Source of the DNA: Lama glama | Taxonomy: Eukaryota | DNA length: 64,000 bases | Assembly: GCA_028534125.1 (NCBI GenBank) | Contig: CM052816.1 | Location: forward strand, 248,001 to 312,000 | Reading direction: 5' to 3' | In this document: positions 5,021-53,311 of the stretch, one piece after another | Numbering within the stretch: position 1 is the first letter of the stretch | How the letters are laid out: each line of letters begins with the position of its first letter | Made by a program: the position numbers and the translations under genes | The notes under the pieces: generated by a model | Databases searched by the model: none | The model's input: only the letters and a program-made list of their open reading frames with translations | Told to the model about the DNA's origin: nothing

Positions 5021-7685
5021 GTAGCTGTTGGTCCTTTAAATTGCTCCCAGTTTTCCCTTTTTTTAATTATGTGCGTGTGTGTTTGTTTTTTCACTTTGGC
5101 TGTGAGGTCTGCCATGTCTGTGTCCTAATGTCCTGTTCTTTTTGTTTTGTGGACACCAGGTCTCCACCATGTTGATGCCAAAACCATGTGTGGGTTGGGA
5201 GTTTTGTTTGTTTTTTGTTTTTTTTCTTTTTAAATAGTCTCTCTTCTGTTTTGCTTCCCTCCAAATGACTTGTTTGTTTCATTCGCTCCCATTGGGGGCT
5301 TTTTAAAAGGAGTTGGGGGCCTCCAGATTCAAGAATCTATGGTTTGTTGTTGGTGGGCTTTTTTGTTTGTTGTTTTTTTTTAATTAAAGAATCCATAGGT
5401 CCTTGCTTTGAGGCCTCCGAGTCTCATGCGTGCCTCCCTGTTGACTTTGCTCTATCCCTCTGTTTCCAGTACAGTGCAAGCCCATGCCCTCCTCTGCCTG
5501 GATTGCAGTGAGAGCCCTTGGTTCTGTTGCTCCAGAAAGGCCCCTTGACTCCTGCAGGGCTGAGCGTGAGCACTTGGTCATGGTCAGACCCCACCAAAAT
5601 TATCTTCTCCCACCCCCACCCCCCCAGCTTTTCTCTTTGTCCTTTTGAGTCAGTCATCACTTTTATTTATTTATTGTTAGTGATTTTAGGAGTAAACTGA
5701 GATGAGTATATGTGTTCATTTCATTCTGTCTTCCATAATTTAGCCTTTATATTTGGGAAAATTGGCTGTTTGCAGAAAAGGAAATGTCATAATAAAGATC
5801 TTTTTAAGTTTTAATTTTACAAATAGTATTCAAAACCAAAAATAATTTCAAAGTGTCAAAAGTGCACTGAAGCCTGTGGAAAGGGGCCCACTGGGCACAC
5901 CTAGGACTATTTGAGCATCTAATTCACAATAGGGTGGCTGGTTCTGACCCACTGAGTAACCTGGGAATACATGAGTTTACACCCTATCAGTACACGGAGA
6001 ACGGAATGGTGGTTCCTTGCAGTAGAATGGTAACTAAGCACTGGAAGGAATGACTAAGTAGAAAATCACCATTTGACAGTCCTTATGGCAGTAATTCCGC
6101 CGGGAGATGTTGGAGTGCTGAAGCCAGAGGGTAGAGGTTGGATGCGCGTAGTCACCCAGTGCTCTCTGATGACTAAGGCAGAAAGTAACGTACAGTGGAG
6201 ACCTGTCGACTTCACCTGAGCCTGTCATCAGAGGTGATGTGGTGTGGTGGGGATCTGGGGCACACCCCCCATGCGGGGTGCAGTGGGGCCTGCCTGTGGT
6301 GGGTGCATATCTGTGTCCTCCATGGAACTGGCCCCTGACCCCAGCAGTGTCCGTCCAAAGTCTAAAGACTGGGGAGCTCATGGTGTGCAGGGCAAGGCCC
6401 CTTCCACCAGCACCCTCCCAGTGGTCAGGTATGAGCAGCTCCCCGCCTGCTTAGAACAAGCTGTTTTTGGTTCAGTTGGTTTTCTGTCAACAAAGTTTTT
6501 TCCAGTTGAAGGTTGCCCAGCCCTCCACAGCTTGGCTTCACCTCAAGGTGCTAAAAGTCCAGGTTCCTAAGCAATCAGCATTTGAGAAAGTGACTGTTTG
6601 TCCCTAAGGCCTTTTTGGAAATAAAAAAAAAATTGAAGAATCAAAGTACTAAGCATGGAGAAGCCAGGCCTGAGCAGTTCTGGTCATTTGGGGGCATTTA
6701 GAATAGGAGATCCTCTCTTCCATGAGCCCCACTCCCCCACAGCTATAGTCAGTTGTCCCTTCCTGCAAATCTGGGTGTCTGGGGCCAGGCTCTAAACTTA
6801 GTCCCAGCCAGCTCCATGGTGTCCCAGTGTTACTGCTCTCCTGAGGGAGGGGAGCCTGGGGGGAGCTCAGGCAAAGCATGCACATTCTCATGCAATTATG
6901 TTGCTGCACCACGTGGACTTCCTCCTCTCTGGCACAGTGTTGACCACAGCTCACAGGGAAGTACCCCCCTGACAGGCTCCCCAGGGCCACTGCTGTGGCC
7001 TCATTCTTGGACTGAATGCTGTGGTGTGCTGGCCTAGAGCCCAGGTTTTCCCATTCCCCAAGTCCTGCCTGCAAGGAGCTAAGCGCTCAGCATGTTAGTA
7101 AAGGTTGGCTTTTGGTTTCTGCCATGGGCTCTCCCAGCTGCTCATGCACTGGTTGTCTTAACATTAGACTGTTTCACTGAAACGTGGGGCAGTTGGGAGA
7201 CATGGTGGAGTCTTGGAGTGGTTATTTCTGGTCCCATGAAAAGTTCTACTTTAGATTGTGGAGGATCTAGCATTCATTTGAAAGCCACACCTCCTCACAC
7301 GTGTTGGACATTGTGCCCCACAGTGGCAGGTTGAAGGACTTAGAGGTAAGTCGCCCTGTGGCCTTGGGTGTCACTTTCTGAGACAGCGTCAGTGGCTGGT
7401 TCAAATTCCGATTAGCCCTGTTCCTAAGAGTCCCGTATTCTTCCTTTTAAGGGTGATCTGAGGGCTCAAGAGACAGGTGGGGAGGATTCTTTTTCTTTTG
7501 CTTGGGAGCAGGAATTTTGTCAGCTTATGCCTTGTGAAGTTTTCAGGAGAGAGCAGGATGTGTGTCTGTCTGTGGGTGGTCTCCGAGTTGCTCCTGTTCT
7601 GCTGGCCCTGGGCAACACAGAGAGACCTGGGACTCCTTGTCTCTGCAGGTTTCTCTGGCCATTGTTGCTCCCACCAGTCTACAGC

Positions 7686-8572
<887 letters not shown>

Positions 8573-25100: not shown

Positions 25101-28059
25101 GGGCTGGGAAGAGCACCCTACTGAAGAGACTGCTGCAGGAGCATGGCAGCATCTTCGGCTTCAGCGTGTCTCGTGAGGCCCCAGGGGAGGTGGGGGAGGG
25201 TCTCAAGGATGCTGGGGGCAGGGACCCCTGCTGACATGCCCTGGAGCCCCCCCCCACGCCCCCAGAAGGGTGGAGCCAGGCCCTGTGGGAAGGCCCGGGG
25301 TATGGGATGCATGGGGCTCCAGGTGTCCAGGTCAGTCACAGGTATTTGTTCCCAGACACCACGAGGAACCCGAGGCCAGGAGAGGAGAACGGCAAAGGTG
25401 AGCTCAGCCAGCCGGCCTCAGCGCTCCAGCACAGGGCTGGAGCAGCCCTCCACCTGTCGTGATGCATGAGGCCTCCCTATCCCCATCTGCTGTGTGGGTC
25501 CCTCTTCTGGGCGGGGTGGGCATAATTAGGAACCAGGCATCAAGGTGCATGCTGGTGCCCAATGTCCACATGAGAGGCTGGGTGGGGGCCCTGATCCCAG
25601 CACGAGGCAGCTGAGGGGCCCCTTTCCTCAGTGTGTGCTGCCCATGCTGTGTGGTTGAGATCATAGCCATGCACCATATAGGGCTCTCTGGCATCGTGAG
25701 CATTTTCTATAGTTTTAGTAGGGCTTCTATGCCTACCTGACACATAGCATGGAAGTCCACCCCAGCCTCCCCTGCTGAAGCTGGCAGTCTCCAGTCTCCC
25801 CCTCCGAAACTCCCCTGCAGTCGCCAGTGGTCTCCAGGCCCTCCTCAGTGGGGACAGTGTGAAAAGTGGCCCCTGCCCATCTGTCTCCCCCCCAGACATC
25901 TCCCTGCCCCTGTGGCCTGAGCAGCCTTCATTGTGGATGAACAGACAGGGATAGACAGGCCCAGAAGGGAAGAAGCTGGTAACCTGGCTGTGGTCATATG
26001 GACAGCTCCTCCTCCTTTGCAGATTACTACTTTGTGACCAGGGAGGTGATGCAGCGGGACATTGCTGCTGGAGACTTCATCGAGCATGCTGAGTTTTCAG
26101 GGAACTTGTATGGGACCAGGTGGGCCATGCTTGGGGCCCTCCCTTCATCCGATTCTCTCAAGGACCTGGAATGGGTGGCCCAAGCAGGGGGTTTCTCTTT
26201 GTGGCCCCCCTAGGCAGCGGGTCTACCCTTGGCTGGGCCCCTGGTTGGGGTTTTCTCTACGGGCTATCTATCTGGGCAGTTGGGGCAAGGGACCTAACCC
26301 CCAAGGGTCAAGATGAGGCAGCAGTCAGGGCTCTTCAGGCCACTCCCTCCTGGCCCAGCCCTACCTGGCCTGCTGTGGGAACCATGGGCCGCTCAAGGGA
26401 CTGATATGTAGTGAGGACTCAGGGAACCTGGGTCTCACAGGTCTGCAGGTTTCACTCTGGCCCCCTCCCCTCCAACCAGTGGGGCAGCCTGGGAGGGTCC
26501 CTGGGGCAACAGAAGCTGCCCCCCTCCTCAACCAGAGCAGGGTCCATGGTGGCTCTCCCCATACAGCTTGTGAGGCTTGGGAGCAGTGTCTTGACACAGG
26601 CAGGCAGGCCCAGACATGCCTTTGTGCACAGCCTGTCCTTGAGCCACCTGGCTGGGTGAGGCAGGGACCCCACAAGACCCATCGTGCTCTGCCCCCAGGT
26701 GCAGATGGAAGGAATGGTCGGTCCCAGAGTGGGGTTGTTTGGCCACTGTTGGGACACTCAGTGCCCGCTGAGAGGTGGTTCCCCCAGTGGAGAGCCTGTT
26801 GTACATGGTGACCTTTAGGGTGAGGGGCCAAGGCCTACAAAGGACGGCCGGGGGATGAGGAAGCCCAACGGGGCGTCGAGTAGTGCTCTCGGGGCCCTGG
26901 GCCAAGGCATCCCTGCCTGAGCAGGGCTCCAGTCTGCAGGACATGAGAGAGGTGGCCATCCTTGTCCCTGAGGTCAGGATCCAGAGGGTATTGTCTTCTA
27001 GGGGCATGATTGGTGGGTTGGACTGATAGAGGTGATAGAGTGGTGTGGCCTGGGGGCAGGTGCCAGGAGGAGAGGCCCTGGGCCAGGGTCTGCAGGGCTA
27101 CCTACTCCCACTCCTGGACCAGCAGAGGGCCCCCATGTGCAAGGGTTGCTCAGGGAGTGCCTCCAGAAAGGTGAGCAGATGCCAGGGTTAGGCTGGGCAG
27201 ACAGGCTCAGAGCAGAAGATGGACAGTGATGGTCCCACTGAGGCTCTTTGAGGCTGTAGGGGCTACTGGAGCCCAGGGAGGCCCCAGCTGAGCAGCACCC
27301 CCTCATCCCCCAGCAAAGCGGCCGTGCGGGCCGTGCAGGCCATGAACCGCATCTGCGTGCTGGACGTGGATCTGCAGGGCGTGCGCAACATTAAGAAGAC
27401 TGATCTGCAACCAATCTACATCTGTGTGCAGCCACCCTCACTGGATGTCCTGGTGAGGGCCGAGAAAGGAGGGGGAGGGGGGTGAGGCGGCCCCAGAAGC
27501 TTTGACCTCCTGACCTTTGTGCTTCATCTCAGGAGCAGCGGCTGCGGCAGCGGAACACAGAGACAGAGGAGAGCCTGGCCAAGCGCCTAGCTGCCGCCCG
27601 GGCTGACATGGAGAGCAGTGAGTGTGGGCGCCTACCACTGGTGTCCCCTGCTCTCTCCCCAGGCCCCACAGTAGGCCAGTCCCACCCACTAAGGGGCAGA
27701 GGAGGACTGGAGCCAGCACCCAGCACTGTGGTCCCCATGAAGAGTCCCCAGACCCTTCCTCTGTCACCAGAGCTTCCGCTGACCCTGCCCCCACCCCCAG
27801 GCAAGGAGCCCGGCCTGTTTGACCTGATCATCGTCAACGACAATCTGGACAAGGCCTACTGGGCCCTGAAGGAGGCGCTCTCCGAGGTGGGCTGGGGTGG
27901 GGCTGGGGCCTCAGACCTCTGTCTGGCAAATGGGGAAAGCAGGCTGGGACAGGTGATATGGTGGCCCCAGGCCAGGCGAGACCCTCTTCCTCTCCCTAGC
28001 CCCACTTCTTCTCTCCCCCACAGGAAATAAAGAAGGCTCAAGCAGCTGGTCACCCCTGA
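19118..28059 (+). CDS. GUK1: Guanylate kinase 1; long isoform 219 aa join(19118..19178,25059..25172,25356..25397,26023..26119,27314..27452,27533..27617,27801..27886,28024..28059); short isoform 198 aa from ATG 25061
   Basis: [46 protein letters not shown] (P-loop)...[20 protein letters not shown]...[11 protein letters not shown]. Exons sum to 660 nt, all GT-AG and in phase. Confidence 0.97.
20421..20925 (+). mobile_element. ERV solo LTR (sense) in GUK1 intron 1
   Basis: TG...CA ends (approximate), TATAAAA at ~20732, AATAAA 20817-20822, U5-like GTAAATTCTTTCAC 20853-20866. Confidence 0.7.
21428..21880 (-). mobile_element. ERV LTR (antisense), related to the preceding LTR
   Basis: GTGAAAGAATTTAC 21520-21533 is the exact reverse complement of 20853-20866; boundaries approximate. 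Confidence 0.55.
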
Positions 28060-34000: not shown

Positions 34001-36975
34001 CTGGTCTCAGGGACTGCCCCGTGAAGGGACAGGACGAGGGGGCGGGTGGAGCTGGGGTCTGGACGGGGCGTGGACATTGTAGGGCCCGGCAGAGTAGAAG
34101 CGCTCGCAGCGGTGCGTTCCACCTGCGGGGTGTTGGTGCGCTGGCGCCAGATGTGCTTTGCATCTTACTTCGAAGTCTGGCGGAGTCTCAAGGGTGGATG
34201 GGCGTCCTCAGGTGCCCGGCAGAAGCGAGGCAGGCCCAGGGAGCGGCGGGGCCCCGCGGGGTCTGGTTCAAGGTTTCTGCTGATGGAGCGGAGCGGGTGC
34301 TGGGCAGAGAGCGCTCGAGGATAAGTCCATCTAAGATGGAAGCTGCTTTGGAGGGAGATTTTTGGGTCTGGTCCTCTGGGGTTTGCTGCGCCTGCCGGAA
34401 TCCACGTGCTGATGTGAAGCTGACAACTGGCACAAGAGGTCTGGATTTGGGGGGCCCTATGCATGGCACTAAGATCAGGGCCTGGGTTCTTCCAGGCCGA
34501 AAGTGGTCAGTCAGTGCCAGCCCCCAGACCACAGAATGATCCGGCCGTGACTGCGCATGTGACCCAGGACCTGCACACACGTGTTCATGGCACGCAGGCA
34601 TCTGCACTTGGTCTGAAGAACCAACTGCCTCTGCCCCACACCCAGAGGTTGCCAGAGCTCCCCTACTGGCACTTGGGGAAGGAAGAGAGGAGGTTTGCTC
34701 CCTCTCCTTTCCCACTCCCCAGGCTGTTCCCCTCAACTGACAGCATGCAGGGCCCTCACCCTCTTTTCTCCACAACTCATCTCTTGAGGGTGTGCTCTAA
34801 CTGCACCCAGGCCAGCCTCCTTGGGCAAAGTGCCACCCCTCACCCCAGGGCAGGGTCCTCCCAGCACCATGCTAGAGCTGGTCTCAGAGCCCCGCCGCTG
34901 CACGTCTCCCCAAGTTGGTTATGGGTCTGGTGGAGGATTTTACACCACAGGAATCGGTAAACACTGCACCAAGGCTTTCCCACTGAGATTCAGCTGTGGA
35001 ATACTAACCACACATGAACGGTCAAGCCTGCCCTGGCACCCTCACCTTCCCTTCCATTTTTCCTCTAGGATCTGTTTTGGAGGGGAGAGAAGAGGGGGGT
35101 TGCTCTGCCATCCCTTTTCTGGGTTCTTGCCTGGTGGGACCGTGGGCCTCGGCCTCCTGTGGTGTGGAACTGTAGAGGTCAGGAATAGGGAGAGATCCTG
35201 GAAAAGAGTTCAGGTTAGAGCTGAGGAAAAAGCCAACCTAGGACACAGGACCCTTGTGCTCTTCCCCCGTTGAAGCAGAGGGATATCAAAGATGGCCCTG
35301 GAGGGCTGGCTGGGCATGTGCCAGTCTGTGTACCTGTGTGCATGCATGTGCACAAGTGCATCGCACACGCGAGTATGCACGTGCATGTCTGAGTGAACTG
35401 TGTGTGTGTGCATCTGTGAGTGTTGTGGCTCTGAGAGGGGCACTGCACACAGATGTGAGGAAGTAGGGTCACTTCCCCAGGAACCCTGGCTGCCCCCTCA
35501 TCCTGCCCCCCGCCCAAGAGCCCAGCTGCATAAAGAGGGCCTGAATCCCTGAATGCCCCTGCTGTTCCACCCCACACCTGCCCACACTGCCTCTCAGGCC
35601 TGTTCCAGAAGGAGGGAGCCAACAGCATCAGGTACTCAGGGGTCTCCTGCCCCCAAACTCAAACTATCCAGAAGCAGGTACTGGTGTTCACCGTGGAGAA
35701 GGGAGGGTGGGTGTTGGGAGGCTGCAGCCCCCTGCCTAGAGTCGCAGAGGTACAGGGGCATGTGGTCCTGCCCACAGAGCCCCTTCTAGGCACAGGCCCA
35801 CTCAGGGGTAGCTGATCTAGAAGGGGCACTGGTCTGGGACATGGTAAGCAGCCAGGTGGCTCTCTCTGAGTGTCACAGGTGCCCAAGTGTGGTTGCACAT
35901 GTGCCTTATGGCCCCCAATCAGGATGTGCATAGGACACAGGAGTGCTGGGACAAGAGGGAGGAGCAGCCTGGAGGGTAGGGCCTCAGCCCCTGGTACAAC
36001 TGGACCTGCAGGAGGTTCTCAGAGGAGCATGGCAGTGATCCTTTGTGGAGGCGGAGGGACCAGAGCCCCTGTGCAAGGTTTGGGGTAAGGGTAGGGGGAG
36101 GGACCGGTCCTGGGAAGCCTGGAGCTGATGGAGCTGAGGGTTACAAGGGGCTGGAGGCTGACAGGGCCGTGGGGTCTGGGGACTGATGGGGTTAGCTCCA
36201 GGGGCTAGGAGGCTGGAGGCTGAGGGCCACTGGGACTAGGGGCCTGGGAAACCACGGGCCACTGGGGGACTGGCGTGGCTGAAGAGCTGGGGGGACAGAT
36301 AGGCTGGGGACTCAGCCCCTGGTGGGCTCCTAGCCTGCCCGAAACAGGTCTCCATGGGACTCCTTCCAGCGATCTGGGTGCTGAGAGGTGGGGGCAGGCT
36401 GAGCTGAGGCTGAGCAGCCCCCACACTCTAATACTCTGAGTGAAACTCAGTTTCCCCATTTGTCCTACAAAGGCAGCTCACCCTGCTGACCCCCTGCAGT
36501 TCTCAGGGCCTTGGGTGGGGTCCCCAGAGGTTGGGGAAGGAGTGCGTCTGGCACTGGGCCAGGCTTTCCTGGAGGACTAGGGGAGGGCAGGAGAGACTGG
36601 CACTGCTCCGGGCCGCAGCGACCTGGGGTCGGGTCTTGGTGGGAGATGGGGCGTGTGCTCAGCCAAAGCAAGGTGTCCTGTCATCTGTCCTTTTAGTGCC
36701 TGTCTTCTGCCTGCAGAGGCCCGGGCCTCTCCCTGTATCCATCCCAGGGCAGAGACTTTGGATGGGGGTGGCGCTCCTGAAGCGGCTGCTCCTTGGGGTG
36801 AAAGATGTGTGTTCCAGAGGGGACCCTGGCCCCAGGTGCTGCTGTCCAACCCCTGCCAGGGGTTGAGCTCCCCATAGCCTGTGTATCTTACCGTCCCCGC
36901 CCCGTACCTCCTTGACCTCCCTTCGCCCCAGGTTGAGCTCCTGCTCGTGGCCTGCAGGTCCCGTCCCCGGTCCCT

Positions 36976-38265
36976 ATGACCAACATGAGCTGGAGCTTCC
37001 TGACACGGCTGCTGGAAGAGATCCACAACCACTCCACGTTCGTGGGCAAGGTATGGCTCACGGTGCTCGTGGTCTTCCGCATCGTGCTCACGGCTGTGGG
37101 TGGCGAGTCCATCTACTCCGATGAACAGACCAAGTTCACGTGCAACACGCGGCAGCCAGGCTGCGACAACGTCTGCTACGACGCCTTCGCACCCCTGTCC
37201 CACGTGCGCTTCTGGGTTTTCCAAATAGTGGTCATCTCCACGCCCTCTGTCATGTACCTGGGCTATGCGGTGCACCGCCTGGCCCGCGCCTCTCAGGACG
37301 AGCGCCGCCGCGCCTCTCGCCGCCGCCCGAGCCGTCGGGTGCCCCGCACACCGCTGCCATTGCCCCCGCCGCCCCACCCGGGCTGGCCTGATCCCGCTGA
37401 CCTGGGTGAGGAGGAGCCCATGCTGGGCCTGGGCGAAGAGGACGAGGAGCCAGGGGCGGGTGAGGGCCTGGGCGAGGAAGACGAGGCTGAGGACGCGGGT
37501 ACAGCCAAGGGCGCTGGAGGGGACACAAAGGCGGCAGGGGCCCCGGGCCCAGCAGGGCAGCATGACGGGCGGCGGCGCATCCAGCGCGAGGGACTGATGC
37601 GCGTGTACGTGGCCCAGCTGGTGGCGCGGGCTGCCTTCGAGGTGGCCTTCCTGGTGGGCCAGTACCTGCTGTATGGCTTCGAGGTGCGGCCCTTCTTCGC
37701 GTGCAGCCGCCAGCCCTGCCCGCACGTGGTCGACTGCTTCGTGTCACGGCCCACCGAGAAGACGGTCTTCCTGCTGGTCATGTACGTGGTCAGCTGCCTC
37801 TGCCTGCTCCTCAATCTCTGCGAGATGGCGCACCTGGGCCTGGGCAGCGCGCAGGACGCTGTGCGCGGCCGGCGACCCCTGCCCACCACCCCCGGCCCGG
37901 CCCCGCGCCAGCCGCCCTGCGCGCTCCCCGCCGCGCCCTCGGGCCTGGCCTGCCCGCCTGACTACAGCCTGGTGGTGCGCGCAGCCGAGCGCGCTCGCGC
38001 CCACGACCAGGACCTGGCCAGCCTGGCGCTGCAGGCGCTGCAGGACCGGCGCGCGCTCGGGGACCTCGACGGCCCACCGGGCCCCGCCCTCCCAGCTGCT
38101 GCCCAGGAACCCCCTAGGGCCGGCGCGCCCGCCTCCGGGTCCGGCAGTGCCACCTCCGGAGGCACGGCTGGGGGCCAGGGCCGGCCAGGCGCCAAACCCA
38201 GGGTGGGCTCAGAGAAGGGCAGTGCGAGCAGCAGCAGGGAGGGTAAGACCACCGTGTGGATCTGA
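36976..38265 (+). CDS. GJC2: Gap junction gamma-2 protein (connexin 47), 429 aa, single coding exon
   Basis: [38 protein letters not shown]; connexin extracellular Cys motifs ([35 protein letters not shown]); C-terminus GKTTVWI; acceptor CTGCAG| at 36957. Confidence 0.99.
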
Positions 38266-43120: not shown

Positions 43121-46100
43121 AAGGCAGATGCCCAACCAAAAGCTCAATCACCACAGGAGAAGGGAATTCTAAGGCATAGGCCTCCTGCTTCAGGAACTCA
43201 GGGCCCTAGCCCTAACCCTGATTTTACTGGCCCTCCCAGGCCAGGGGAGCCAACCTCTGTGTCATCCATGTTTCTACCTCCAACACCAATTTCTTGATGT
43301 TCTGAACCATCATAACCATGATTTCATGCCCGAGCTCTGATACCCTAACAGGGTGTCGATCGCCCACTTGGGACATGGTACCTAAGATGTTCAAGTCTGT
43401 TAACCCTCAGAGATGGAACTCAACCACTAAATTTGGCACTTAATGCTCATTCAGCTACTTAAAAAAAACCAAAACCAAAACCCCAAACCCTCTCAGTGGC
43501 TGAATGGAGAGCTGAACTGGGGTGCAAAGCCACCCCTCCTGTCCCCAACTTCTGTGCCCTAGAGCAGGCTGGTGGGCCAAGCCCAGGTCTCCTATCCCTG
43601 CTTCCCTGCCTGGTGGGGTCCTCTGGCTGTGTGGGGCCCACCTAGGTTTGTACAGGGGCAGGGCCAGGCCAGGGGAGTGGCTGGAGCAGGAGCAGACAGA
43701 ATGGCCTCGTCTCATTCTCATCCGTTTCCATGGCTGGAGCCAACTCGCCGGCTGCTCAGGGAGATCGTGGAGGGCTACAGGGAGGCGGGCACTCCACCAC
43801 CCCCAGAACGGGGGCAGTTTCCTTCTTCTGCCTTTGGGAAGGGAGGAGGCCATGAGGAGAGAATAACAGGAAACAACCCCTGGCTTGGCAGCGGCTGGGA
43901 AACAGGGTCTGGGACCCCCATGCCTGCCGATTTTCCAGCTTTCAGCTCCCCACCCCTCCTGACAGCTCCGAGGCCTGTGGCCTCAGAGGGAGGAGACTGC
44001 ACATGGGATCTAGCAGCAACCTATGTCCCCAGCTGGACCCAGGCCAATGGGGGGGGTTCCTTGAAGCCAAGCCACAGTTCCCTCCATCCAGACCTGTGGA
44101 CAAAGTGAGGGGACCTGAGAAGAAGCAGTAACCAGACTGGTGCAGAGATCCGGGAAGGCTTCCCGGAAGAGGGAACCTGGGGCAGTGCTGTTTGGCAGAT
44201 TCTGGGATGGTGGGAGATGTTTCCTTTTTCTGTCCACGGACGCAGCCACCAGCTGAGAGCGGCTCTGGACATTTCAAGTGTGGCCCATGCAGCAAGGAGC
44301 TAAAAGTTTCACTTGACTTCATCTGAGTTAATCTGCATTAAACAGCCTCAGCAGTGGACCTGCTGGACAGTGCCAAGCGGGCTGGGCTCGACACTGGATT
44401 GGAAGGTCGGGGGAGGTTCCAGGTGGCCCCGGGTCGGCCTACTGGCCCTTCCTGCAGGCTGTGCCAGTGGGAAGCATGTTCCTCTGCTGGCCAAGGGATG
44501 GGCTGACGTGAGGCTGGAGGAATGCACCCCCCCACCCCATGTTGTCCTCCAGTGGTTTCCTCCCTGCCCTCACAGGGTTGGCAGGGAGGTGCTGGCTCAC
44601 CTTCAGAACACAGACCCAGCAGAGGAAGACCTTCTCCATGAAAGGTCAGTGGAGCCACATTCCAAGCCTGGCTGGTCATAACCGGGAAGGCAGCCAGGAG
44701 GGGGACTGAGGGCTTGGGCGACCCTGGGGAGCTCTGGCTGGGCCCCTCCATGCCCTGATCATGCAGTCAGTCCTGACTTGCCAGGCCCAGCTGAGAAGGG
44801 TCTGGGACCTCACAGGATTTGGGCAGCAAAGCCTTGAGGAGGGTTTGGAGGGGCAAATAGGAGCTGGACAGAGAGGGGTGAGGAGGCTGGGCAGAGGGAT
44901 GGGTGGCGGGAGGACAGCTGGCTGAGGCTGGACTGTGGTGCTCAGATGGGTCCTTTACAGGGATCCGCCTAGACAGGGATTTGTTTATTTAATCAATATT
45001 ATCTGTGCCCTTGATGTGTGCTGGGCCCTGGGGATGCAGCAGGGAGCTGCACAGAGATCCCTGCCTTTGGAACTCCAGAGCAAAAACCAGAGGCATGACA
45101 ACTAAGGAGTGTTCAGTGTGAAGGAGGGCGGGCTGAGGAGTTTATTCTTTTACAATTTCTGTAGGTTAAAAGTTTCAAATAGAAAAGTGGGGAAACGCAC
45201 ACATAGGTGGTCAGAGTGGCTTTGTAAGGGGCTGGCATCTGGGTCTGACAGTGAGGTGAGGCATGAGCCCTGTGGCTGTTGGGGGTTCTGCTGAGGCTGG
45301 GAACAGGGGAGGGAGACCAGGAGAGGGAGCTCTGCCCTGGAGCTGACTCTGATGAGATGGGAGGGGAGTGTGGGGGTTTGAATTCTGTTGGAGCGACACA
45401 TGAGGATGCGAGGTGTGGAGGCCAACACCAGGCTGTGTGCCGGGTATGGGACAGTGGGGGCTACCAGGCGCTAGGGCTGCAGGACACTGGGGACATGTGA
45501 AGGTCACACCTGTACATGCACGGTTTGAGTATCAGACATGGAAGGAGTGTCAAAACAGGCGATGAGGCCTGGGATTTGGGAGAAATGCATGGACTGCACA
45601 TCAGTTTGGACCTGTTGGCATGTGGATAGCATGGAAAGTTCTGCAGCTGGATGAGGCTGGTGAGAGCGAGGGGAGACGGAGCAGGGACCCAAGGATGTCC
45701 CTGGAGCCCCACGCTATTTGCTAGCACAGTCTTAACCCCTTGCCTTGTTCCTCTGCAGTGCTGCTCACAGGCCTCAGCAGAAACCAGCCCTGCCAGCACC
45801 TGGATCTCACACTTCCAGATTCCAGAACTGAGAAATAAATGTCATTTAAGCCACTCAGTCTATGGAATTTGTTATGAAGCCTGAGCTAATACATTTAGGA
45901 AAATAGTATGGAGGTTCCTCAAAAATGTGAACACAGAATTACCATATGATGCAGCAGTCTCACTTCCGGGGATACACCTGTGGTATTGTGACTTACAATA
46001 AGCAATATACATTTAATCTCCATCCTTATTCTTGGCACAGGGCTCCTAAAACCCTTGGAATTTCTTAAATGATAAGGGTGATAAAGGTGTCTTGATATTG

Positions 46101-46504
46101 TTAACAAGCTCTTGTCAACAAATTTATGTTAATGAGGTGATTTTGGAAAGACCCAAAGAGTCTCAATGTCCAGGGACACAAGCGCTATGACATCTTTCTC
46201 TACGGGTGAGAGAAGGGATTGCCAGGAGAACCAGCCATGTGATTAACCAGGGTTAGAACTTTTAGCCCCATGCCCTGACCTCTCGGAAGGAGAGACTGGG
46301 GATTCAATCAATAGCCAGCGGTCAATGATTTAATCAATCACATCGCTGTAATGAAGCCTCCATAAAAACCCAAAAGGGCAGGGCTTGGAGAGCTTCTGGG
46401 TTGGGGAACACATAGATTTGGGGAGAGTGGTGTGCCCCTTCCCACATACCTTGCCTTATGCATCTCCTCCACCTGGATGTTCCTGAGTTATACCCTTTTA
46501 TAAT

Positions 46505-46957
46505 TGTAGCCCCCCGATTAGGTGAACAAAGGAATGAGTCTTGGGCAGGACTGGTAAACAAGTTATAAAAAGCTGCAGACTCAGAGGTGTGAGGGCTGGC
46601 TAGCCAATGACGGGTAAGATCCCCAGAGGGGGGCAACCTAAGACAGGCACAGCCGCCTGAGTCAGAAAGAGTATCATCAAGCAGCTATTTTCCCGTATGT
46701 TCCGCCCTGATAAGATGTAAGGCTCACTGGCTCCATGATGAACATAACTGATCAAGAACGTCAAAGGATCTTACGATCTTCAACTAAAAACAGTCTGTGC
46801 CTGTAGAGAGTCATAAAAATGTCATACCATAGTTAAACATTTTCCAGATTGTTCTCTTCTGCTTTATAAGCCTGTGTAGCTTAATAAACTTTTAGAGTAG
46901 CCATCAGCTCTCTCCGCATACAGTGTGTTTGTGTACATTGATATCGTGACGCCAACA
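46505..46957 (+). mobile_element. Young betaretrovirus-like (ERV2-like) solo LTR, 453 bp, 5-bp TSD ATAAT
   Basis: ATAAT|TGTAGC...GCCAACA|ATAAT. The TATA box (TTTATAA 46863-46869) is only ~20 nt before AATAAA (46883-46888), a short-R architecture. Contains a CTE-like motif. Confidence 0.85.
46578..46663 (+). other. CTE-like (NXF1/TAP-binding) RNA hairpin
   Basis: AGCCAATGACGGGTAAGA (46602-46619) and CAACCTAAGACAGGCACAGCC (46634-46654), closed by GGCTG/CAGCC and GACTCAG/CTGAGTC stems. Confidence 0.8.
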
Positions 46958-47899
46958 ATAATAAATCAGTAATCTAGTAAGTAATATGTTTCTCTGAGCT
47001 CTGTGAGGCACTCTAGCAAATTAATTGAACCTAAGGAGTGGGCTGTTGGCTGTTGGCAACTCTGATGTATAGTTGGTTGGTCAGAAGCACAGGTGACAAC
47101 CTGGACTTCAACTGATATCTGAAGAAAGAGACAGAGAGATAGAGAGACAGGGACAGAGAGAGAGAGAGAGAGAGAGAGCGTGAGAGCGAGTGAGTGTGCA
47201 TGCAGTCTTATGGGATCTGATGCTACCTCCAGGTAGATGGTTTTAGAATTGAGTTAAACTGTAAGACACCCAACTGGTGTCAGAAAATTGTGTGGAATGG
47301 AGATTCTACCCCCGCCCCCTCCCCACATTTAGTGATCAGAAGTGTCAGAAGTGAAGAGTAGTGTGAAAGTATAGGACACACAGCAATGTGTGTTTCACAC
47401 AATAACGAACTGAAAGCAAAATTGCAAAGAGATATTTGCACAGTGTTCATAGTAGCATTATTCATAATAGCCAATGAGTGGAAGCAACACAAATGTCCAT
47501 CAATGGGTGAATGGATAATCTAAATTTGGTATACATACATACAGTGGATACTATTCAGCCTTAAAAAGAAAGACTGACACATGCTACATCACAGAGGTAC
47601 TTGGAAGACACCAGCCAGTCACAAAAGGACAAATAGTGCATGATTCCACTTCTATGAGTTTCCCAGAGGAGTCACATTCATAGAAATAGAGTAGAATAAG
47701 GCTCCTAGGGGCTGGGGTGGGAGCTAGGGCTCAGTGTTTGAAATGGCCCGAGTTTCAGAAGATGAGAAAGTTCTGGATGATGGGGATGACTGCTGCACAG
47801 TGTGAATGCGCTTAACACCCCTGAAACTATGTACTTAAAAATGGTTAAGATGGTAAAGTTTAGGTTATGCGCACCTCACCACAATCAAGCAAGCAGAAA

Positions 47900-48280
47900 C
47901 TAAGCTCTGAGAATCGAGGACACGCCAAGTACACGAGTAGCCCCCTGCCTCGGAGGGGTGTGTGGGTGACCGACAGCCAGAGGCCCCGCCCCCGAGCACG
48001 CCCCGCCCACTCTCACCCCGGCCACTCTCTAGCCAGCACCGCTCGCCCGCCTCCAGGGGCTGCTGCGGTGCCGGCCCGCGCATGCTCGCGCACGCCCCGC
48101 CCACGCCCCGCGCTCCCGCCGCCAAGGGCTGTTGTGGCGTACCCGCTCCCCCCAACCCCGCGCACCGCCCCGCTGCGCACGCTCCGCTAGCCTGCCTCCA
48201 GCAGCTACTGTGGGGCCCGCCCGAGCTGCCGCCCGGGCCGCCCCTTCCCGCCGTCGCATTCCCCCCAAAGATGGCGGCCG
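47900..48280 (+). promoter_or_regulatory. IBA57 CpG-island promoter
   Basis: Multiple GC boxes (CCCCGCCC), NRF1-like GCGCATGC, and YY1-like AAGATGGCGGC overlapping the ATG. Confidence 0.75.
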
Positions 48281-51200
48281 CGGCGCTGCTCCGGGGCGCA
48301 ACTCCAGGGCGCGGCGGCTCGGCCTGGCGCTGGCGGCTGCGCGCGGTTCCGAGGCGCCGCCTGGCCCACGGCGCCTACTGTCAGGGCGGCGGCCCCAAGG
48401 GCGGCGCGGCCTGGGCTTGCTTCCTGCTGGGCGAGCGCGCCCTTGTGCGCGTGCGCGGACCGGACTCGGCGCCCTTTCTCCTGGGTCTGCTGACCAATGA
48501 GCTGCCACTTCCGGGTCCTGCGGCCGGCTCGGCTTCAGCCCCGGCGCGCGCGAGCTACGCCCACTTTCTCAATGTCCAGGGACGCACGCTCTATGACGTC
48601 ATTCTCTACGGGTGAGAGCATGGTGGGGGATAGGCTCCGGGGGTTGGGGGAGGGCTGAGGGATGGGCTCCCTTGGAGGGCTCTCGGGTGGGCAGACACGG
48701 GGGAGGGGCAGGCTGAGGGCGGAGCTTAGGGCATCCAGAGGCGGGGCACCTACGGGAAGACTCCGTGTGGCCCAGGATGGACATCCGGGAGAGCACGAGC
48801 AGGGCAGGCCATCCACTGGAGGCACATCTGGGAGCCTGTGCACAGACAGGGTGGGCGGAGGTGGGACGGCGTCTGCGGATTGGAGGGGCGCCCATGGTGG
48901 GACACTTGGGGACCTGCACACGGGGTGGGCTCGGGGTAGGCGCCCGGGCAGGGCAGCCATCGGTGGACTGGAGCCGGCACCCACGAATGGGCCTGCGATT
49001 CTCACCCATGGGAGGGCCTGGACTCTCCTGCACCTGGCCTCTTCTCCTGTTCAGACCCACTGCACGGAAAAGGGGTCGTGGCACCTGGAGCCACACTGCG
49101 GGGAGCCGCTTGTGCCACTGCTCACTGAGTTCTCCGGTGTACACTCCGGTGTGCGTTTCTCTCCAAAATTTCGTATTCAGTAATATTAGCGTGTGTTTAC
49201 ATCAGTCTCTGCCGACCTTATCACGACTGTCCGTGTTGGTCACAAGAACAAGCCAAGTCGGTGGCCTTGCCCTTTGTCGTATAGAANNNNNNNNNNNNNN
49301 NNNNNNNNNNNNNNNNNNNNNNNNNNNNNNNNNNNNNNNNNNNNNNNNNNNNNNNNNNNNNNNNNNNNNNNNNNNNNNNNNNNNNNNNNNNNNNNNNNNN
49401 NNNNNNNNNNNNNNNNNNNNNNNNNNNNNNNNNNNNNNNNNNNNNNNNNNNNNNNNNNNNNNNNNNNNNNNNNNNNNNNNNNNNNNNNNNNNNNNNNNNN
49501 NNNNNNNNNNNNNNNNNNNNNNNNNNNNNNNNNNNNNNNNNNNNNNNNNNNNNNNNNNNNNNNNNNNNNNNNNNNNNNNNNNNNNNNNNNNNNNNNNNNN
49601 NNNNNNNNNNNNNNNNNNNNNNNNNNNNNNNNNNNNNNNNNNNNNNNNNNNNNNNNNNNNNNNNNNNNNNNNNNNNNNNNNNNNNNNNNNNNNNNNNNNN
49701 NNNNNNNNNNNNNNNNNNNNNNNNNNNNNNNNNNNNNNNNNNNNNNNNNNNNNNNNNNNNNNNNNNNNNNNNNNNNNNNNNNNNNNCCCATGGAACGTCC
49801 ACCCCGTGAGTGAGATGGAGGCATCAGGGGTCCTGTCCACCCCGGCACTCTGGTGGTCCCATCACCACCCCTCCTCAGGGCCCTGCCCCGGCTGGGTCTC
49901 TTCCCAACGTGGCCATGGCTTTACCTGCATCTCTCCCTCCTCCTCCCAAGGTTTTCTCTCCCCAGCAACCTCACATTCTGCTCACCCATGCTCAGTTCCT
50001 CCCCTTGCCAGTATTTCATACCGTTTCTGCCTGCTTCCTCTATCAGAGATTTAAAAAATCAAACTGTAACTGCACATGGTTAAAACCCCTAACCTTTAAA
50101 GGCTTATGATGAAAACTGACTGCTGTCTCCCTTGTGTCTCACCGGCACAAACCCATCTTCTCCAGAGGCAGCTCCCTTTTCTTTTTGCTTTTTCTTTTGA
50201 AATAATTACAGATACCCAGGAAGCCACAAAAAAAAGAACAGGGAGGTTGCATGTCCCCTTCACCCAGTTCCCACAATGGCAACACCTTGCCTTCTGTAGT
50301 CCAAAGTCACAACCAGGGGACTGACGTGGGCCAGCCACAGGGTGCACCCAGGTTCCTCCAGATTTCCACGTGTGCCTGCAGCTCTGTGATTTGCTCACAC
50401 GTGTGTGGACCTGGGGAACCTCGATCAAGACAGCTCTTCCATTACTATCAGGCTCCCTTCTAAACTCTGCTCTCAGGTACTCAGCTGCTTGCCCTCCATC
50501 TCTATGACTGTGTCATTTCAGGAGTATCGAATGAACAGAGTCTCTTAAGATTGGGTTTCACTCACCTCGATGCCCTTCAGCCTCTTCCTTGCTGAGTACT
50601 ATTCCACCGAGAGAATGTACCACAGTGTGTGAACTGTTCACCCGCTGAAGGGCATCTTGGTTTCATTGCCTGGCTGTTAAGAATAAAACCGCTCCTAATG
50701 TTCATGCGTGGGTTTTCTGTGAACACCTGGGGTGTTCCCTGGGGTAAGTGCCCAGGAGTGCAATGGCTGGGTCGTGTGGTAGCTATGTATTTAGTTTTAT
50801 AAAGAACAATCCATTTTCCAGAATGGCCACTCCATTTACATTCCCACCAGCAAGGCTGAATGATCCAGCTTCTCCTCTGCGTTCTCTCTGCCTTGGATGT
50901 TTTTATTTCAGCCTTTCTGATAGCTGTGCCCTGGTGTCTGTCACGGTGGGTTTTGCCTCGTGATAAGTGACATTGAACTTCTTTTCGTGGGGTTATCTGC
51001 AGCAGCGCCTTTGAATTCTTCTGTTTGTTCTGGCCTTTTAATTCCGGCTGTAAATGACCCTTTCCCCACCCCGCAGCTGATCTCAGTTTTGACCTTCTTT
51101 CAGGACTGTTTGGGAGGTGAGCGGCTAACCTGGCTTGCTGCTGCAGCCTGCTCTTTCCCGCTTTCTCCACGTGGTTGTTGATGTCCTTACTGGACCCACG

Positions 51201-53311
51201 GCTGGTAGTTACGTGCAGGGACATGGAAGGTTTTGTGCTGTGGGGTGAACCCACAGCAAATCGGCACACAGAGCAAGCCTCTGCAGCTTTTTCCTCTGGG
51301 GGTGACTGACTGCTTCAGGGCAGCACTTAACCCTTTCCTGCCTGGGTAGGAGGTTGGGGGCACAGCTGGTGGGCTCTGGGGGCGGGGGCGGGGGTGGGGG
51401 TACCAGCTGATGGCCTTTTCCTTATATGTACTCCTAGAACGTCTTACCCACGTTTTCGTCTCAGCTCCCACCTGGCTGTGGGTCCTTGCTCAATCCATAT
51501 GTACAGCCAGGACCTCAGCCTTCTACCCCTGTGGGTCCTAGAAGTCTCCATTTAGGGGTTCTCCTCCATGTCCAGTGGTGCACTGCCTCTCCTTTGTGCT
51601 TATCTGTCCGTGATGGCTCCACCATCCGTCTGGTCACCACAGTAGGATCCAGGGTCCTTCCAGTGCATGTTGGCTGCCAGTGCAGGTTAGGATGGTTCTG
51701 GGGCTCTGATCAGGTTGTGGGGCTTTCCTAGGGGAGGTGGGAGGTGGCCTTGGGCAGGATGTGGCCTCACCACACATCTCACCTTACATCAGCTGCCTGC
51801 TGTACCCCCAGCTCTTCCTGCCCGCCCGCATCCCTGCTGAGATCCACTGTGCACCCTGCCTTAGAACCCTTGGCTTTTTCTCAGTGGCTTCTCAGGGCTG
51901 GAGGAGGCAAATCCTGGACCTCAGTGTGACCTTGAGCACCTGACACCACTGTGGTCCCAGGGCCCTGCTTCTCAGCGGTCCGGCCAAGGCCTCTCCTCCA
52001 CTGGTCAGACTGCTCCTCGTGGGTGAGGAGGGGTCCTGTAGTGGCCATGAGGTTTCTAGCATGCATTGCGCTGTGCAGCAGTACCAGGTGGTCCACGGGT
52101 GGTCCATTGCATTGGAAGGCACAGCCGTGCATGGGTGTGGCCCGACCCTGCGCACTTCCTACCATGTGCCCTGCCCACCCCACCTCCCCCTGCAGGCTCC
52201 TTGAGCACTCGGATGAGCAGCCCACCTTCCTCCTGGAGTGTGACACGTCAGTGCTGGACGCGCTGCAGAGGCATCTGGTGCTGCACAGGATCCGGCGGAG
52301 GGTCACGGTGGAGCCATGCCCTGAGCTGCGCGTGTGGGCCGTGCTGCCCTGTGCCTCTGAGGACGCCAGCAGGGCTGCACCGCTGCAGGAGAAGGCCGAG
52401 GGCACCGCCGTCCTCACCCGTGATCCCCGAACAGCCCGCATGGGCTGGCGGCTCCTCTCCCAGGATGAGGGCTCAGCCCTGGTGCCCGGGTCCCGGCTTG
52501 GGGACCTCCAGGATTATCACCGGCACCGGTACCAGCAAGGTATGGACATGGGACTGGGCCTGGGGAAGGGTGAGGGAGAAGTGCTGGATGGTGGGGAGGG
52601 ATTAGGGTGGGATTGGAGGGGGAGGAGGGGTGTGACACAGGGCCCTGGGGAAGCTCTGTGGTGGGCCCAGGCTCTGGGAGGAGCCAGGGGAGGGAGCAGG
52701 GGTCTGGGATAAGACCAGACCTAGGTGCTGACCTGGGGACCAGGATGGGGAGCTGCAGCAGGGACCTGGAGAATGGGAGGGACCCGGAGGATTGTGGGGG
52801 GCAGATGGTGGGGCTTCTACAGGCCAGCACTGCCAGCCTCCCTGGGTTGAGCTGCCAGCTCTCTGTAGGTCACCTCAGAGTCTGGGATTCACTAAGCCTC
52901 TCCCCTCCCACCCCTACAGGTGTTCCCGAGGGGATCCACGACCTGCCCCCAGGAGTGGCTTTGCCCCTGGAGTCCAACCTGGCCTTCATGAACGGCATCA
53001 GCTTCACCAAGGGCTGCTACATTGGCCAGGAGCTGACGGCCCGCACCCACCACATGGGTGTCATCCGAAAGCGCCTCTTCCCAGTACAGCTCTCAGGCCC
53101 CCTCCCGGTGGGCGGCATCGCCCCCGGCACCTCCGTGCTCACCGAGTCAGGTCAGGCAGCCGGCAAGTACCGGGCAGGCCAGGGGGACGTGGGGTTGGCT
53201 CTGCTGCGGGCAGAGAAAGTCAAGGGCCCTCTCCACATCAGAACCTCTGAGAGCGGTCTAGTGGCCCTGACTGCATCTGTGCCAGACTGGTGGCCCACAG
53301 CTACCAACTAG
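48271..53311 (+). CDS. IBA57: Iron-sulfur cluster assembly factor IBA57, mitochondrial, 358 aa; join(48271..48611,52196..52539,52920..53311)
   Basis: Arg-rich presequence; [35 protein letters not shown] and the YgfZ/CAF17 signature [12 protein letters not shown]. Exons 341+344+392=1077 nt, GT-AG and in phase. Confidence 0.98.
49287..49786. other. Assembly gap (500 N) in IBA57 intron 1
   Basis: Exactly 500 N, a typical placeholder size. Confidence 1.
50180..51000 (-). mobile_element. L1M fragment (antisense) in IBA57 intron 1
   Basis: cccttcacccagttccc..., gggtaagtgcccaggagtgcaatggctgggtc, catttacattcccaccagcaa. Confidence 0.7.

Follow-up and report, generated by a model that had tools for sequence, protein, structure and literature searches.

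The window, a stretch of 64,000 nucleotides from Lama glama, contains at 46578-46663 an 86-nt hairpin, in sense orientation to the viral RNA and confirmed by reading the sequence, which I consider, with a probability of about 0.8, to be a true homologue of the retroviral constitutive transport element (CTE): single-looped, host-derived, unduplicated, situated in the U3 of a betaretroviral solo LTR and predicted to recruit NXF1. A CTE is a structured RNA that directly binds the export receptor NXF1/TAP, and it is the textbook case of a viral RNA binding the bulk mRNA export receptor of the cell without an intermediary. The sequence of the LTR element is, judged from the comparisons below, intermediate between the CTE of the host NXF gene and that found in Mason-Pfizer monkey virus (MPMV); together with the single-loop design, this is why I read it as a host-derived, unduplicated CTE.

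The hairpin and the solo LTR that carries it

All parts of the hairpin that had been described in an earlier note on this DNA, i.e. the two outer stems, the internal loop and the apical TCCCC/GGGGG stem, are present in the sequence (Table 1). The internal loop consists of AAUGACGGGUAAG opposite ACCUAAGACAGG, the feature by which I recognised a CTE, and its 5' strand includes GGTAAG, which resembles a 5' splice site. The long motifs of the hairpin occur once each in the 64-kb window when no mismatches are allowed.

Table 1. Features of the solo LTR and of the hairpin in its U3 (window coordinates)
Feature	Position	Strand	Remarks
Solo LTR, betaretrovirus-like ERV family	46505-46957	+	453 bp; TGTAG...CCAACA ends
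Target-site duplication, 5' copy	46500-46504	.	ATAAT
Target-site duplication, 3' copy	46958-46962	.	ATAAT
Outer stem	46578-46584 with 46657-46663	+	GACTCAG with CTGAGTC; 7 bp; read from sequence
Second stem	46594-46598 with 46650-46654	+	GGCTG with CAGCC; 5 bp; read from sequence
Loop-closing stem	46603-46605 with 46646-46648	+	GCC/GGC; 3 bp
Internal loop, 5' strand	46606-46617	+	AATGACGGGTAA; identical to MPMV
Internal loop, 3' strand	46635-46645	+	AACCTAAGACA; same sequence in MPMV and in the host NXF intron element
Apical hairpin	46618-46634	+	G-C pair, bulged A, TCCCC/GGGGG stem and AGAG loop (stem and loop 46620-46633)
TATA box of the LTR promoter	46865-46870	+	TATAAG; read from sequence; conserved across aligned copies
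Polyadenylation signal	46883-46888	+	AATAAA; read from sequence; conserved across aligned copies

The surrounding LTR has TG...CA ends, a target duplication, a TATA box, an AATAAA signal and dispersed copies, and in proviral copies the same LTR ends adjoin a polypurine tract and a primer-binding site. The proposed location in the U3 of a solo LTR is borne out by these features; the hairpin begins 73 nt inside U3, i.e. downstream of the polypurine tract. Among 23 LTRs of the family for which both flanks were available, the target-site duplication measures 5 bp in ten and 6 bp in four, and is missing in nine.

Folding with RNAfold, which the earlier note had proposed, puts the CTE-type fold of the window hairpin (-29.6 kcal/mol) 1.1 kcal/mol above the minimum free energy of -30.7 kcal/mol. 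With a z-score of -1.11 the folding energy alone is unremarkable, and a second LTR copy is also thermodynamically weak (z = -0.65). For the homologous element in a host NXF gene (z = -2.48) and for a copy of the D family of LTRs (z = -1.84), the minimum free energy structure is the CTE-type fold itself. An Rfam scan of 44000-49000 at E <= 10 placed no family on the hairpin and returned weak unrelated matches only. A covariance model of 70 copies finds the window element with 117.8 bits as its sole match in the window.

A betaretrovirus-like LTR family with a conserved core

The element is carried throughout the family, as had been anticipated: a 19-mer taken from it has 829 matches in the genome, against 18 for the reversed control, and the paired loop motif with both strands exact is found 126 times in the 2.35-Gb genome and not once for its reversed control. 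Pairs of 19-mer matches, for instance at C5:12.614-12.620 Mb and C8:37.186-37.202 Mb, mark candidate full-length proviruses. In all 100 matches listed of these 126, the two strands lie at a short spacing of 31-44 nt in total.

The proviral copies identify the kind of virus. A dUTPase (9.8e-23) and a retroviral protease (RVP, 2e-18) are encoded in one open reading frame, the pro frame, with the dUTPase fused upstream of the protease; the RT thumb, RNase H and integrase (IN) were also detected, and the transmembrane protein (TM) belongs to the Pfam family GP41 (1.7e-21). The best PDB matches are 7usf/3jca for IN and 2d4l and 6s1v/1nso/3sqf for dUTPase and protease, which I take to be MMTV and MPMV entries. 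The order of dUTPase and protease, the structure matches of IN, dUTPase and protease and the GP41-type TM support a betaretrovirus-like (class II) lineage, as far as sequence can assign it, and agree with the betaretroviral ascription made previously. The virus is not of the MPMV type, as MPMV env is of the TLV_coat family and the TM of this ERV of the GP41 family. The polypurine tract directly precedes the LTR in proviral copies, and the 18-mer that follows the 5' LTR, TGGTGACCCCGACGTGAT, is presumably a primer-binding site of the tRNA-Trp type, that of MPMV presumably being of the tRNA-Lys type. A search with MPMV env against two proviruses, both internally deleted so that the start of gag is soon followed by the dUTPase, gave no match. 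In one provirus, 394 of 414 LTR positions are identical between its two LTRs.

Between families, the core that holds the element is far better conserved than its surroundings. The identity of the window LTR with six LTRs of the D family is 0.87-0.93 in the core and 0.49-0.60 in the rest of U3; with seven LTRs of the S family the values are 0.93-0.97 and 0.60-0.63. Within families the picture is different, as the hairpin is about as diverse as its flanks and not clearly less so, and the 5' strand of the loop has a diversity (pi) of 0.10-0.12 against 0.06-0.08 in the flanks. The higher conservation of the element, which had been put forward as a point to be checked, is seen between families and not clearly within them. 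Among 57 sampled copies, the 3' loop strand CCTAAGACAGG is intact in 48 and both loop strands are kept in 23, with AAGGAC, AAAGAC and AGTGAC among the variants of the 5' strand; the CpG of the loop has decayed to TG or CA in 16. With this decay and this diversity within families, no trace of constraint following insertion is seen, and the decay of the CpG by itself argues against a general constraint at the level of the host.

Covariation in the stems, another expectation of the earlier note, was found. In an alignment fitted to the covariance model, on which the highest pair counts rest, pairing is kept in 96.6% of 1713 cells, compared with no more than 44% once the partners are shifted against each other, and 11 of the 21 pairs have changed on both sides, a number reached by none of 500 shuffles. 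A plain MAFFT alignment gives 94.6% paired cells and 26 cells in which both sides have changed, where shuffles give 5.1. RNAalifold, run on that MAFFT alignment, recovered the second stem alone (5 bp, -9.5 kcal/mol) and no covariation; realignment with the covariance model was done because the 5' arm of the D family is shifted by 2 nt in the MAFFT alignment. The outer stem co-varies between families (TATCCAG/CTGGATA and TGTCCAG/CTGGACA) and with the host gene (TGGCCCC/GGGGCCA), and the apical stem of the D family has the compensatory variant TCCTC/GAGGA. These compensatory changes trace to few independent events, namely those of the D family, the tandem arrays and the host gene.

Selection at the level of DNA could also preserve a block in U3, which is where enhancers sit, and the 5' loop strand reads AGCCAATGACG, with a CCAAT box and a TGACG half site that I take to be binding sites. 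Read in this way, as a CCAAT box with an ATF-like half site, the strand may owe part of its conservation to such selection on DNA. That the block is mainly such an enhancer, its likeness to a CTE having no consequence for RNA export, would also accord with the weak thermodynamic z-scores of the LTR copies. I nevertheless regard it as quite improbable: the 3' strand AACCTAAGACAGG, at a distance of 30 nt, is no less conserved, if not more so (48/57 copies vs. 29/57), the stems have kept their pairing through the changes on both sides, and the same two-strand design occurs in the host NXF intron and in the 3' UTR of MPMV, where it has no promoter role.

The window LTR carries a single unit, in agreement with the monomeric CTE that had been proposed. 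One sub-lineage departs from it: U3 regions of the D family contain tandem arrays, one with a period of 99 and 3.5 copies, another with a period of 103 and 3.7 copies, i.e. at least 3.5 units. The longer motif spacings in the genome reflect such tandem repetition of whole units and not nesting.

Relation to the cellular NXF element and to the CTE of MPMV

A host NXF gene (C36; NXF1 or a paralogue) carries a contiguous homologue of the element in the intron flanked by the exons for LRR_NXF1-5 and NXF_NTF2 (L122:2241-2341). The covariance model derived from the LTRs matches it over its full length, including all four helices, with 65.5 bits (E = 2.9e-20). As a control for specificity, I scored 80 viral loci with a chance 3' motif, drawn from at least 119 viral-contig matches of that motif, and none of them exceeded 18 bits. 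BLAST aligns the window LTR to the host element over 68 nt at 82.4% identity and an LTR of the D family over 67 nt at 86.6%, with E-values of 6e-13 and 3e-16, and detects no further LTR homology in the host NXF intron.

The two elements share one loop made of the same pair of strands, a short apical hairpin, the GCC/GGC closing stem, a 4-nt bulge, the 5-bp second stem, the 7-bp outer stem and the splice-site-like GGTAAG. They differ in location, the cellular CTE lying in an NXF intron and the LTR element in a retroviral U3 with about 800 copies, and in the tandem arrays, which occur in some LTRs and not in the cellular CTE. At positions 2-3 of the loop the host gene has GA (its variant is AGAGAC), whereas LTR copies have AT, AG or AA, and the sequence of the outer stem is entirely different in the two, yet co-varying. 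A cellular CTE in intron 10 of NXF1/TAP was found by Li et al. 2006, as described by Wang et al. 2015 (PMC4338338); in the accessible part of the latter, cellular NXF CTEs are said to have one loop and the viral CTE two, and no CTEs are reported outside the NXF gene family.

MPMV was represented here by L060, the 3' part of its genome, in which the env open reading frame is exactly ENV_MPMV. L060 contains AGCCAATGACGGGTAAGA (18/18) and CAACCTAAGACAGGC (15/15), the latter followed by one A/G difference and then by CAGCC (5/5), and BLAST against the MPMV CTE yields two 24-nt matches of 91.7% each, so the almost letter-for-letter match that the earlier note gave turned out to be real. One match falls on the first 5' strand of the MPMV CTE and the other on its last 3' strand, the two strands that make up the outer loop of that CTE. 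The resemblance extends to the layout of stem, bulge and bulged A around the identical loop strands, to a place within the 3' UTR of every viral RNA near the U3 boundary, and to a betaretrovirus with dUTPase and protease. It ends where the CTE of MPMV/SRV has two nested loops related by 180 degrees and the LTR element one loop capped by a 5-bp apical stem; the MPMV CTE moreover stops upstream of the polypurine tract, some 30-40 nt from it, while the LTR element lies downstream of it, inside U3, and the IN of the ERV shares just 38% identity with its MPMV counterpart.

Each of the motifs is short, and 29 of the 31 viral-contig matches of single 15-mers are in unrelated phage contigs, which might suggest that the resemblance is due to chance. 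The joint occurrence of both strands, of their spacing and of the stem layout in hundreds of copies, set against the empty reversed control, and the BLAST E-values against the host element refute this, and its probability is negligible.

The designation of the element as half of an MPMV CTE thus holds for the homology and not for the word "half", since the design is a complete one with a single loop, contiguous with the host NXF element. With this contiguous homologue of the same single-loop design in a host NXF gene, the window element would be better called a complete cellular-type CTE. The opposite derivation, in which a two-loop CTE of the MPMV type degraded by losing its inner half, would explain why both strands match the outer loop of MPMV and why the loop variant AATGAC is common to the LTR element and MPMV, the host gene having AGAGAC. 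I consider it unlikely, as the spacing is short in all of the listed matches and the longer ones are not nested; the host NXF element, unlike MPMV, matches the apical hairpin and the GGCTGGTTAGCC arm; the D family shares its TCCTCAG with the host's TTCCTCAG; and the class of env differs from that of MPMV, as does most of the IN sequence.

Wang et al. (PMC4338338) proposed, in the part of their paper at hand, that a retrovirus captured the CTE from the NXF1 gene and that the duplication came afterwards. A betaretrovirus with a GP41-type env and a single-loop, NXF-like CTE is an intermediate of the kind that hypotheses of capture and duplication predict, and the LTR element links the cellular and the viral forms of this export signal. 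My tentative proposal, to which I give somewhat less than even odds, is that this ERV group still has the retroviral CTE as it was at first, cellular in form and unduplicated, a betaretrovirus with a native GP41-type env having taken it from an intron-retaining transcript of a host NXF1. If this is true, the use of a CTE by betaretroviruses would be independent of the recombination with a gammaretrovirus-type env behind SRV/MPMV, and the two-loop CTE of MPMV would have arisen from such an element afterwards, through nested duplication. Retroviruses would then have answered the requirement of more than one NXF1 site on two or more occasions, SRV/MPMV through nested duplication and the D lineage through tandem arrays of at least 3.5 units. 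Hayward 2013 (PMC3621094) and Williams 2024 (PMC11379458), as far as their available text goes, leave it unsettled whether the CTE of SRV/MPMV was older than the gammaretroviral env swap or came with that swap. Hypotheses on the origin of the CTE can now be tested by comparative genomics and simple reporter assays.

In rodent IAP elements, TAP-binding elements (TBE) were reportedly found by Zolotukhin and co-workers in 2001. The present element resembles these as a CTE-type, putatively NXF1-binding motif carried by class II endogenous retroelements outside SRV/MPMV. TBE-type motifs are also reported for endogenous betaretroviruses of bats, where the search by Hayward et al. 2013 (PMC3621094) covered env and the region downstream of it; the accessible sections of that text, compared by description only, mention no site in U3, no full NXF-homologous hairpin and no tandem arrays. 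The CTE of SERV-K/MER11 (Williams et al. 2024, PMC11379458) is also LTR-derived, and serves a betaretrovirus as a Rec-independent export element. It differs, according to the excerpts of that paper, in being about 1000 bp long and, per its authors, without homology to the MPMV CTE and without NXF1-binding loops, the LTR element being an 86-nt direct homologue. In the openly accessible literature (subscription journals, Repbase and Dfam lying outside the search) I found neither a CTE of a camelid ERV nor an NXF-type CTE borne in U3.

Predicted export of viral RNA and the fate of the copies

As U3 is transcribed solely from the 3' LTR, one copy of the CTE is expected in the 3' UTR of every viral RNA, about 220 nt upstream of the AATAAA. 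This position would functionally equal that of the MPMV CTE, being just downstream instead of just upstream of the polypurine tract. The most likely mechanism, suggested by the identity of the loop residues, is recruitment of NXF1:NXT1 by the internal loop, by which unspliced gag-pro-pol RNA could leave the nucleus without a Rev- or Rem-like protein. Half-CTE RNA is bound by the RRM-LRR of NXF1, according to the available part of PMC4330390. In reporters, as described in the accessible sections of PMC4338338, high activity required duplication and a single loop was weak, so the monomer may be a poor signal on its own. A sister LTR lineage would have multiplied the binding sites through tandem repetition, and the natural series from one to about four CTE units could serve to probe how NXF1-dependent export depends on the number of binding sites.

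If the capture proposed above is true, the genome would hold hundreds of loop-intact CTEs of the NXF1 type outside NXF genes, some of which may act on host transcripts. A stronger version, that solo-LTR copies including the one in the window have been co-opted by the host to export intron-retaining or non-coding transcripts, could draw on the roughly 800 copies, on the retention of both loop strands in the sampled ones, on the cellular NXF CTE, which serves one host mRNA in this way (PMC4338338, as far as available), and on a possible effect of dispersed copies on host intron retention, raised for other ERV-borne CTEs, those of SERV-K/MER11, in the accessible text of PMC11379458. This seems very improbable to me, as the CpG decay and the flank-like diversity of the hairpin are what neutral decay would produce and a single loop is weak in reporters. 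The window copy, in addition, is intergenic, with a connexin gene at 36.9-38.3 kb on one side and a CAF17 gene, with its last mapped piece at 52.6-53.3 kb, on the other, and no exons were detected around the copy. From this position and from the CpG decay among copies, the window copy is most likely an inert fossil.

The hairpin and its LTR

The hairpin at 46578-46663 agrees exactly with the stems and loop that the earlier note had read there, and each of its long motifs occurs once in the window (0 mismatches). It lies at positions 74-159 of U3, in the sense orientation of the viral RNA, and its placing in the U3 of a solo LTR is confirmed by proviral copies, which fix the LTR boundaries: their polypurine tract stands immediately 5' of TGTAG, and ...CAACG/CA is followed by an 18-nt primer-binding site and the gag start (MGQQL...). 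Searching the window's own genome (2.35 Gb) with the LTR gave 799 first-look candidates, and all 40 that were scored are matches. Among the LTR copies L001-L030, 23 of which have both flanks readable, the target duplication is 5 bp in 10/23, 6 bp in 4/23 and absent in 9/23.

As far as can be seen the window copy is intergenic, with the connexin ORF on one side and the C-terminal exon of CAF17 on the other, in a gene order that I take to be that of the human ARF1-MRPL55-GUK1-GJC2-IBA57 region. Its flanks read through as a single older repeat-like stretch, which suggests insertion of the LTR into another interspersed repeat; some 170 nt downstream of the LTR there is a (GA)n / (GAGA) microsatellite (47128-47180).

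Features of the window, host NXF elements, and LTR families sharing the CTE module
Feature	Location	Strand	Description
Arf family	window 7428-8329		Pfam
Mitochondrial ribosomal protein L55 (MRPL55)	window 15445-15915	-	Pfam
Guanylate kinase	window 27506-28027		Pfam
Connexin	window 36937-38262		Pfam; one 442-aa ORF
LTR	window 46505-46957		453 bp, ends TGTAG...CCAACA; contains hairpin
Target duplication	both sides of 46505-46957		ATAAT
Outer stem	hairpin 46578-46663		GACTCAG/CTGAGTC, read from sequence
Second stem	hairpin 46578-46663		GGCTG/CAGCC, read from sequence
Loop-closing stem	hairpin 46578-46663		GCC/GGC, read from sequence
Internal loop	hairpin 46578-46663		AATGACGGGTAA opposite AACCTAAGACA, read from sequence
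Apical stem	hairpin 46578-46663		TCCCC/GGGGG around AGAG, read from sequence
TATAAG	window 46865		in window LTR
AATAAA	window 46883		in window LTR
CAF17 C-terminal barrel	window 52574-53308		Pfam
Host single-loop CTE	L122:2241-2341 = G000:C36:8002240-8002340	+	intron between LRR and NTF2 exons
Second, diverged host element	L124:105-200	-	27.6 bits; downstream of RNA-binding exons of an NXF paralogue, small contig
Window's LTR family			87-90% identity over whole LTR
S family			413-bp LTR, ~75% identity
Other families with module			shared LTR positions ~22-275 only
D family			divergent LTR

Relation to the viral and the cellular CTE

In the RNAfold check suggested earlier, the CTE-type fold of the window copy (-29.6 kcal/mol) is 1.1 above the minimum free energy (MFE), and the MFE itself (-30.7 kcal/mol) does not stand out from shuffled sequences (z -1.11). 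As, moreover, no Rfam family matches the hairpin, the case is built on homology and comparison rather than on energy.

Scanning viral contigs for an exact 15-mer gave 31 loci, 29 of them unrelated phage contigs and two retroviral (L060 and L061, on contigs of 8557 and 8126 bp, respectively); the env ORF of L060, which is the 3' part of the genome of MPMV (Mason-Pfizer monkey virus), is identical letter for letter to ENV_MPMV. The nearly letter-for-letter match to the MPMV CTE, as stated in the earlier note, holds: AGCCAATGACGGGTAAGA is present there 18/18, and CAACCTAAGACAGGC 15/15, followed by one A/G difference and then CAGCC. By BLAST the 5' half of the window element aligns with the first MPMV 5' strand and the 3' half with the last MPMV 3' strand (22/24 each), which together form the outer one of MPMV's two loops. 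Both CTEs have a 3-bp closing stem, a 4-nt 5'-side bulge that faces 1 nt, a stem of 5 bp and, inwards, a G-C pair and then a bulged A. The MPMV CTE ends shortly 5' of the polypurine tract, whereas the window-type element starts 73 nt past it, in keeping with the former being upstream of the 3' LTR and the latter within the LTR.

Pfam searches of the llama genome locate an NXF-family gene on contig C36, with the order Tap-RNA_bind, LRR_NXF1-5, a gap of ~2.4 kb, NXF_NTF2 and TAP_C. Its intron contains an element that an LTR-derived model matches over the full length with all helices (65.5 bits, E 2.9e-20), for which the CTE-type fold is the MFE (z -2.48, RNAfold), and whose position is that of the human NXF1 intron-10 CTE (PMC4338338). 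This element has one contiguous 68-nt BLAST match to the window LTR (82.4%) and one of 67 nt to a D-family LTR (86.6%), and the rest of the LTR has no BLAST match in the intron. As no other LTR sequence matches there, the possibility that the intron CTE is itself an LTR insertion is ruled out.

The host element shares the GGCTGGTTAGCC and CAACCTAAGACAGGCACAG arms and the single-loop design with the LTR element, and the apical sequence TCCTCAG with D-family LTRs; the loop variant AATGAC of the LTR element is that of MPMV, the host having AGAGAC instead. With some features common to the host and others to MPMV, the LTR element is, judged by sequence, intermediate between the two. It had been called half of the MPMV CTE; given the features shared with the host NXF element, a complete CTE of the cellular type is the better description.

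Conservation and pairing among LTR families

The hairpin is family-wide, as predicted: the paired-motif pattern occurs at 126 places in the genome (reversed control, 0), a flank-only pattern at 134 (control, 0; one unrelated among the 100 matches listed) and a 19-mer with up to 2 mismatches 829 times (control, 18). All 100 paired-motif matches listed of the 126 span 31-44 nt and are thus single loops. The CTE module is common to several LTR families, and its 61-nt core is more conserved than the remaining U3 when the window LTR is compared both with six D-family LTRs (identity 0.87-0.93 vs. 0.49-0.60) and with seven S-family LTRs (0.93-0.97 vs. 0.60-0.63).

In a MAFFT alignment of 70 sequences (A3; L068, L085, L091-L093, L101 and L109 left out for indels or truncation, L086 and L088 as unrelated or duplicate), 94.6% of 1423 cells are paired, against at most 47% with partners slid, and both sides are changed in 26 cells vs. 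5.1 in shuffles (0 of 500). RNAalifold recovered the second stem alone, because A3 places the 5' outer arm of the D family 2 nt out of register. A covariance model from A3 realigned 86 matches from 80 sources, host elements included; in this alignment, which is biased towards the structure, 96.6% of 1713 cells are paired (slid, at most 44%) and 11 of 21 pairs show both-side changes (shuffle mean 5.3; 0 of 500). Four versions of the outer stem occur, each fully paired (GACTCAG/CTGAGTC, TATCCAG/CTGGATA, TGTCCAG/CTGGACA and, in the host gene, TGGCCCC/GGGGCCA), and two of the apical stem (TCCCC/GGGGG and TCCTC/GAGGA). These compensatory changes represent few independent events; despite this and the fitted alignment, the direction of the evidence is consistent.

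The virus, its tandem arrays and the fate of the copies

The proposed betaretroviral lineage is supported by two internally deleted proviruses (L062 on contig C12, L063 on C37; ~5 kb each, most of gag missing), which encode a dUTPase fused to the protease, RT thumb, RNase H and integrase. Their gag start (MGQQLTVQQ...) hits a stop after ~48 codons, with the dUTPase-protease ORF within ~250 nt; a run of 500 Ns adjoins each provirus. The best solved-structure matches (7usf/3jca for integrase; 2d4l and 6s1v/1nso/3sqf for dUTPase and protease) are presumably MMTV and MPMV entries, and the ERV integrase has 38% identity with the MPMV C-terminal pol ORF. Downstream of the 5' LTR the primer-binding site is TGGTGACCCCGACGTGAT (L062:7441-7458, - strand; L099 and L105 have it too), which I take to be of the tRNA-Trp type, not the usual one in a betaretrovirus.

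In a piece of a D-family provirus, a TM ORF that belongs to Pfam family GP41 (1.7e-21) ends ~120 nt upstream of the polypurine tract, whereas TLV_coat is the family of the MPMV and SRV-like env ORFs. A homologous putative CTE is, on this difference, present in a betaretrovirus without the gammaretrovirus-type env of SRV/MPMV, which bears on a question left open in PMC3621094 and PMC11379458. Searches of the openly available literature turned up neither a U3-borne CTE of the NXF type nor a CTE in camelid ERVs; Wang et al. state that they saw no CTEs beyond the NXF family (PMC4338338), and according to Hayward et al. some bat betaretroviruses have TAP-binding motifs (PMC3621094).

The CTE had been proposed to be monomeric, which stands for the 100 matches listed but not for D-family U3s with tandem arrays. 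A long-spacing pattern occurs at 32 places (control, 0), 30 of them a D-type unit with a second unit after it, located nearly always on small unplaced contigs. Two such contigs (L126, G000:C120064:1-473; L127, G000:C129525:1-447) each yield three complete hits to the model and a fourth truncated by the contig end. One array has a 99-nt period (3.5 copies, 98% match), the other a 103-nt period (3.7 copies, 94% match); both are truncated by contig ends, and an ordinary D-family U3 follows one of them. The array copies may be young and near-identical, having broken the assembly. Some D-family LTRs (L096, L097, L103, L105) carry, upstream of a complete unit, a partial one that keeps the outer-stem arms and downstream spacer with its core deleted, apparently what is left of an array of two units. 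In published reporters, high activity needed two copies of a single-loop CTE (PMC4338338), and natural multimerisation would fit a role in recruiting NXF1.

Within the family, hairpin segments show no clear reduction in diversity (0.00-0.12) relative to the flanks (0.06-0.08). Among 57 sequences sampled irrespective of loop content, 48 keep CCTAAGACAGG complete, 29 keep GACGGGTAAG and 23 keep both, and the loop CpG is TG or CA in 16; the LTR pair of one provirus is identical at 394/414 positions. My conclusion from the diversity, the loop decay and the intergenic setting is that it was the virus that was under selection, and that decay is under way in the solo copies. The loop strand at 46611-46618 contains GGGTAAGA, which resembles a consensus 5' splice site, a motif conserved in NXF1 CTEs too (Wang et al. 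2015, PMC4338338), and through which the ~800 dispersed copies could supply cryptic donor sites.
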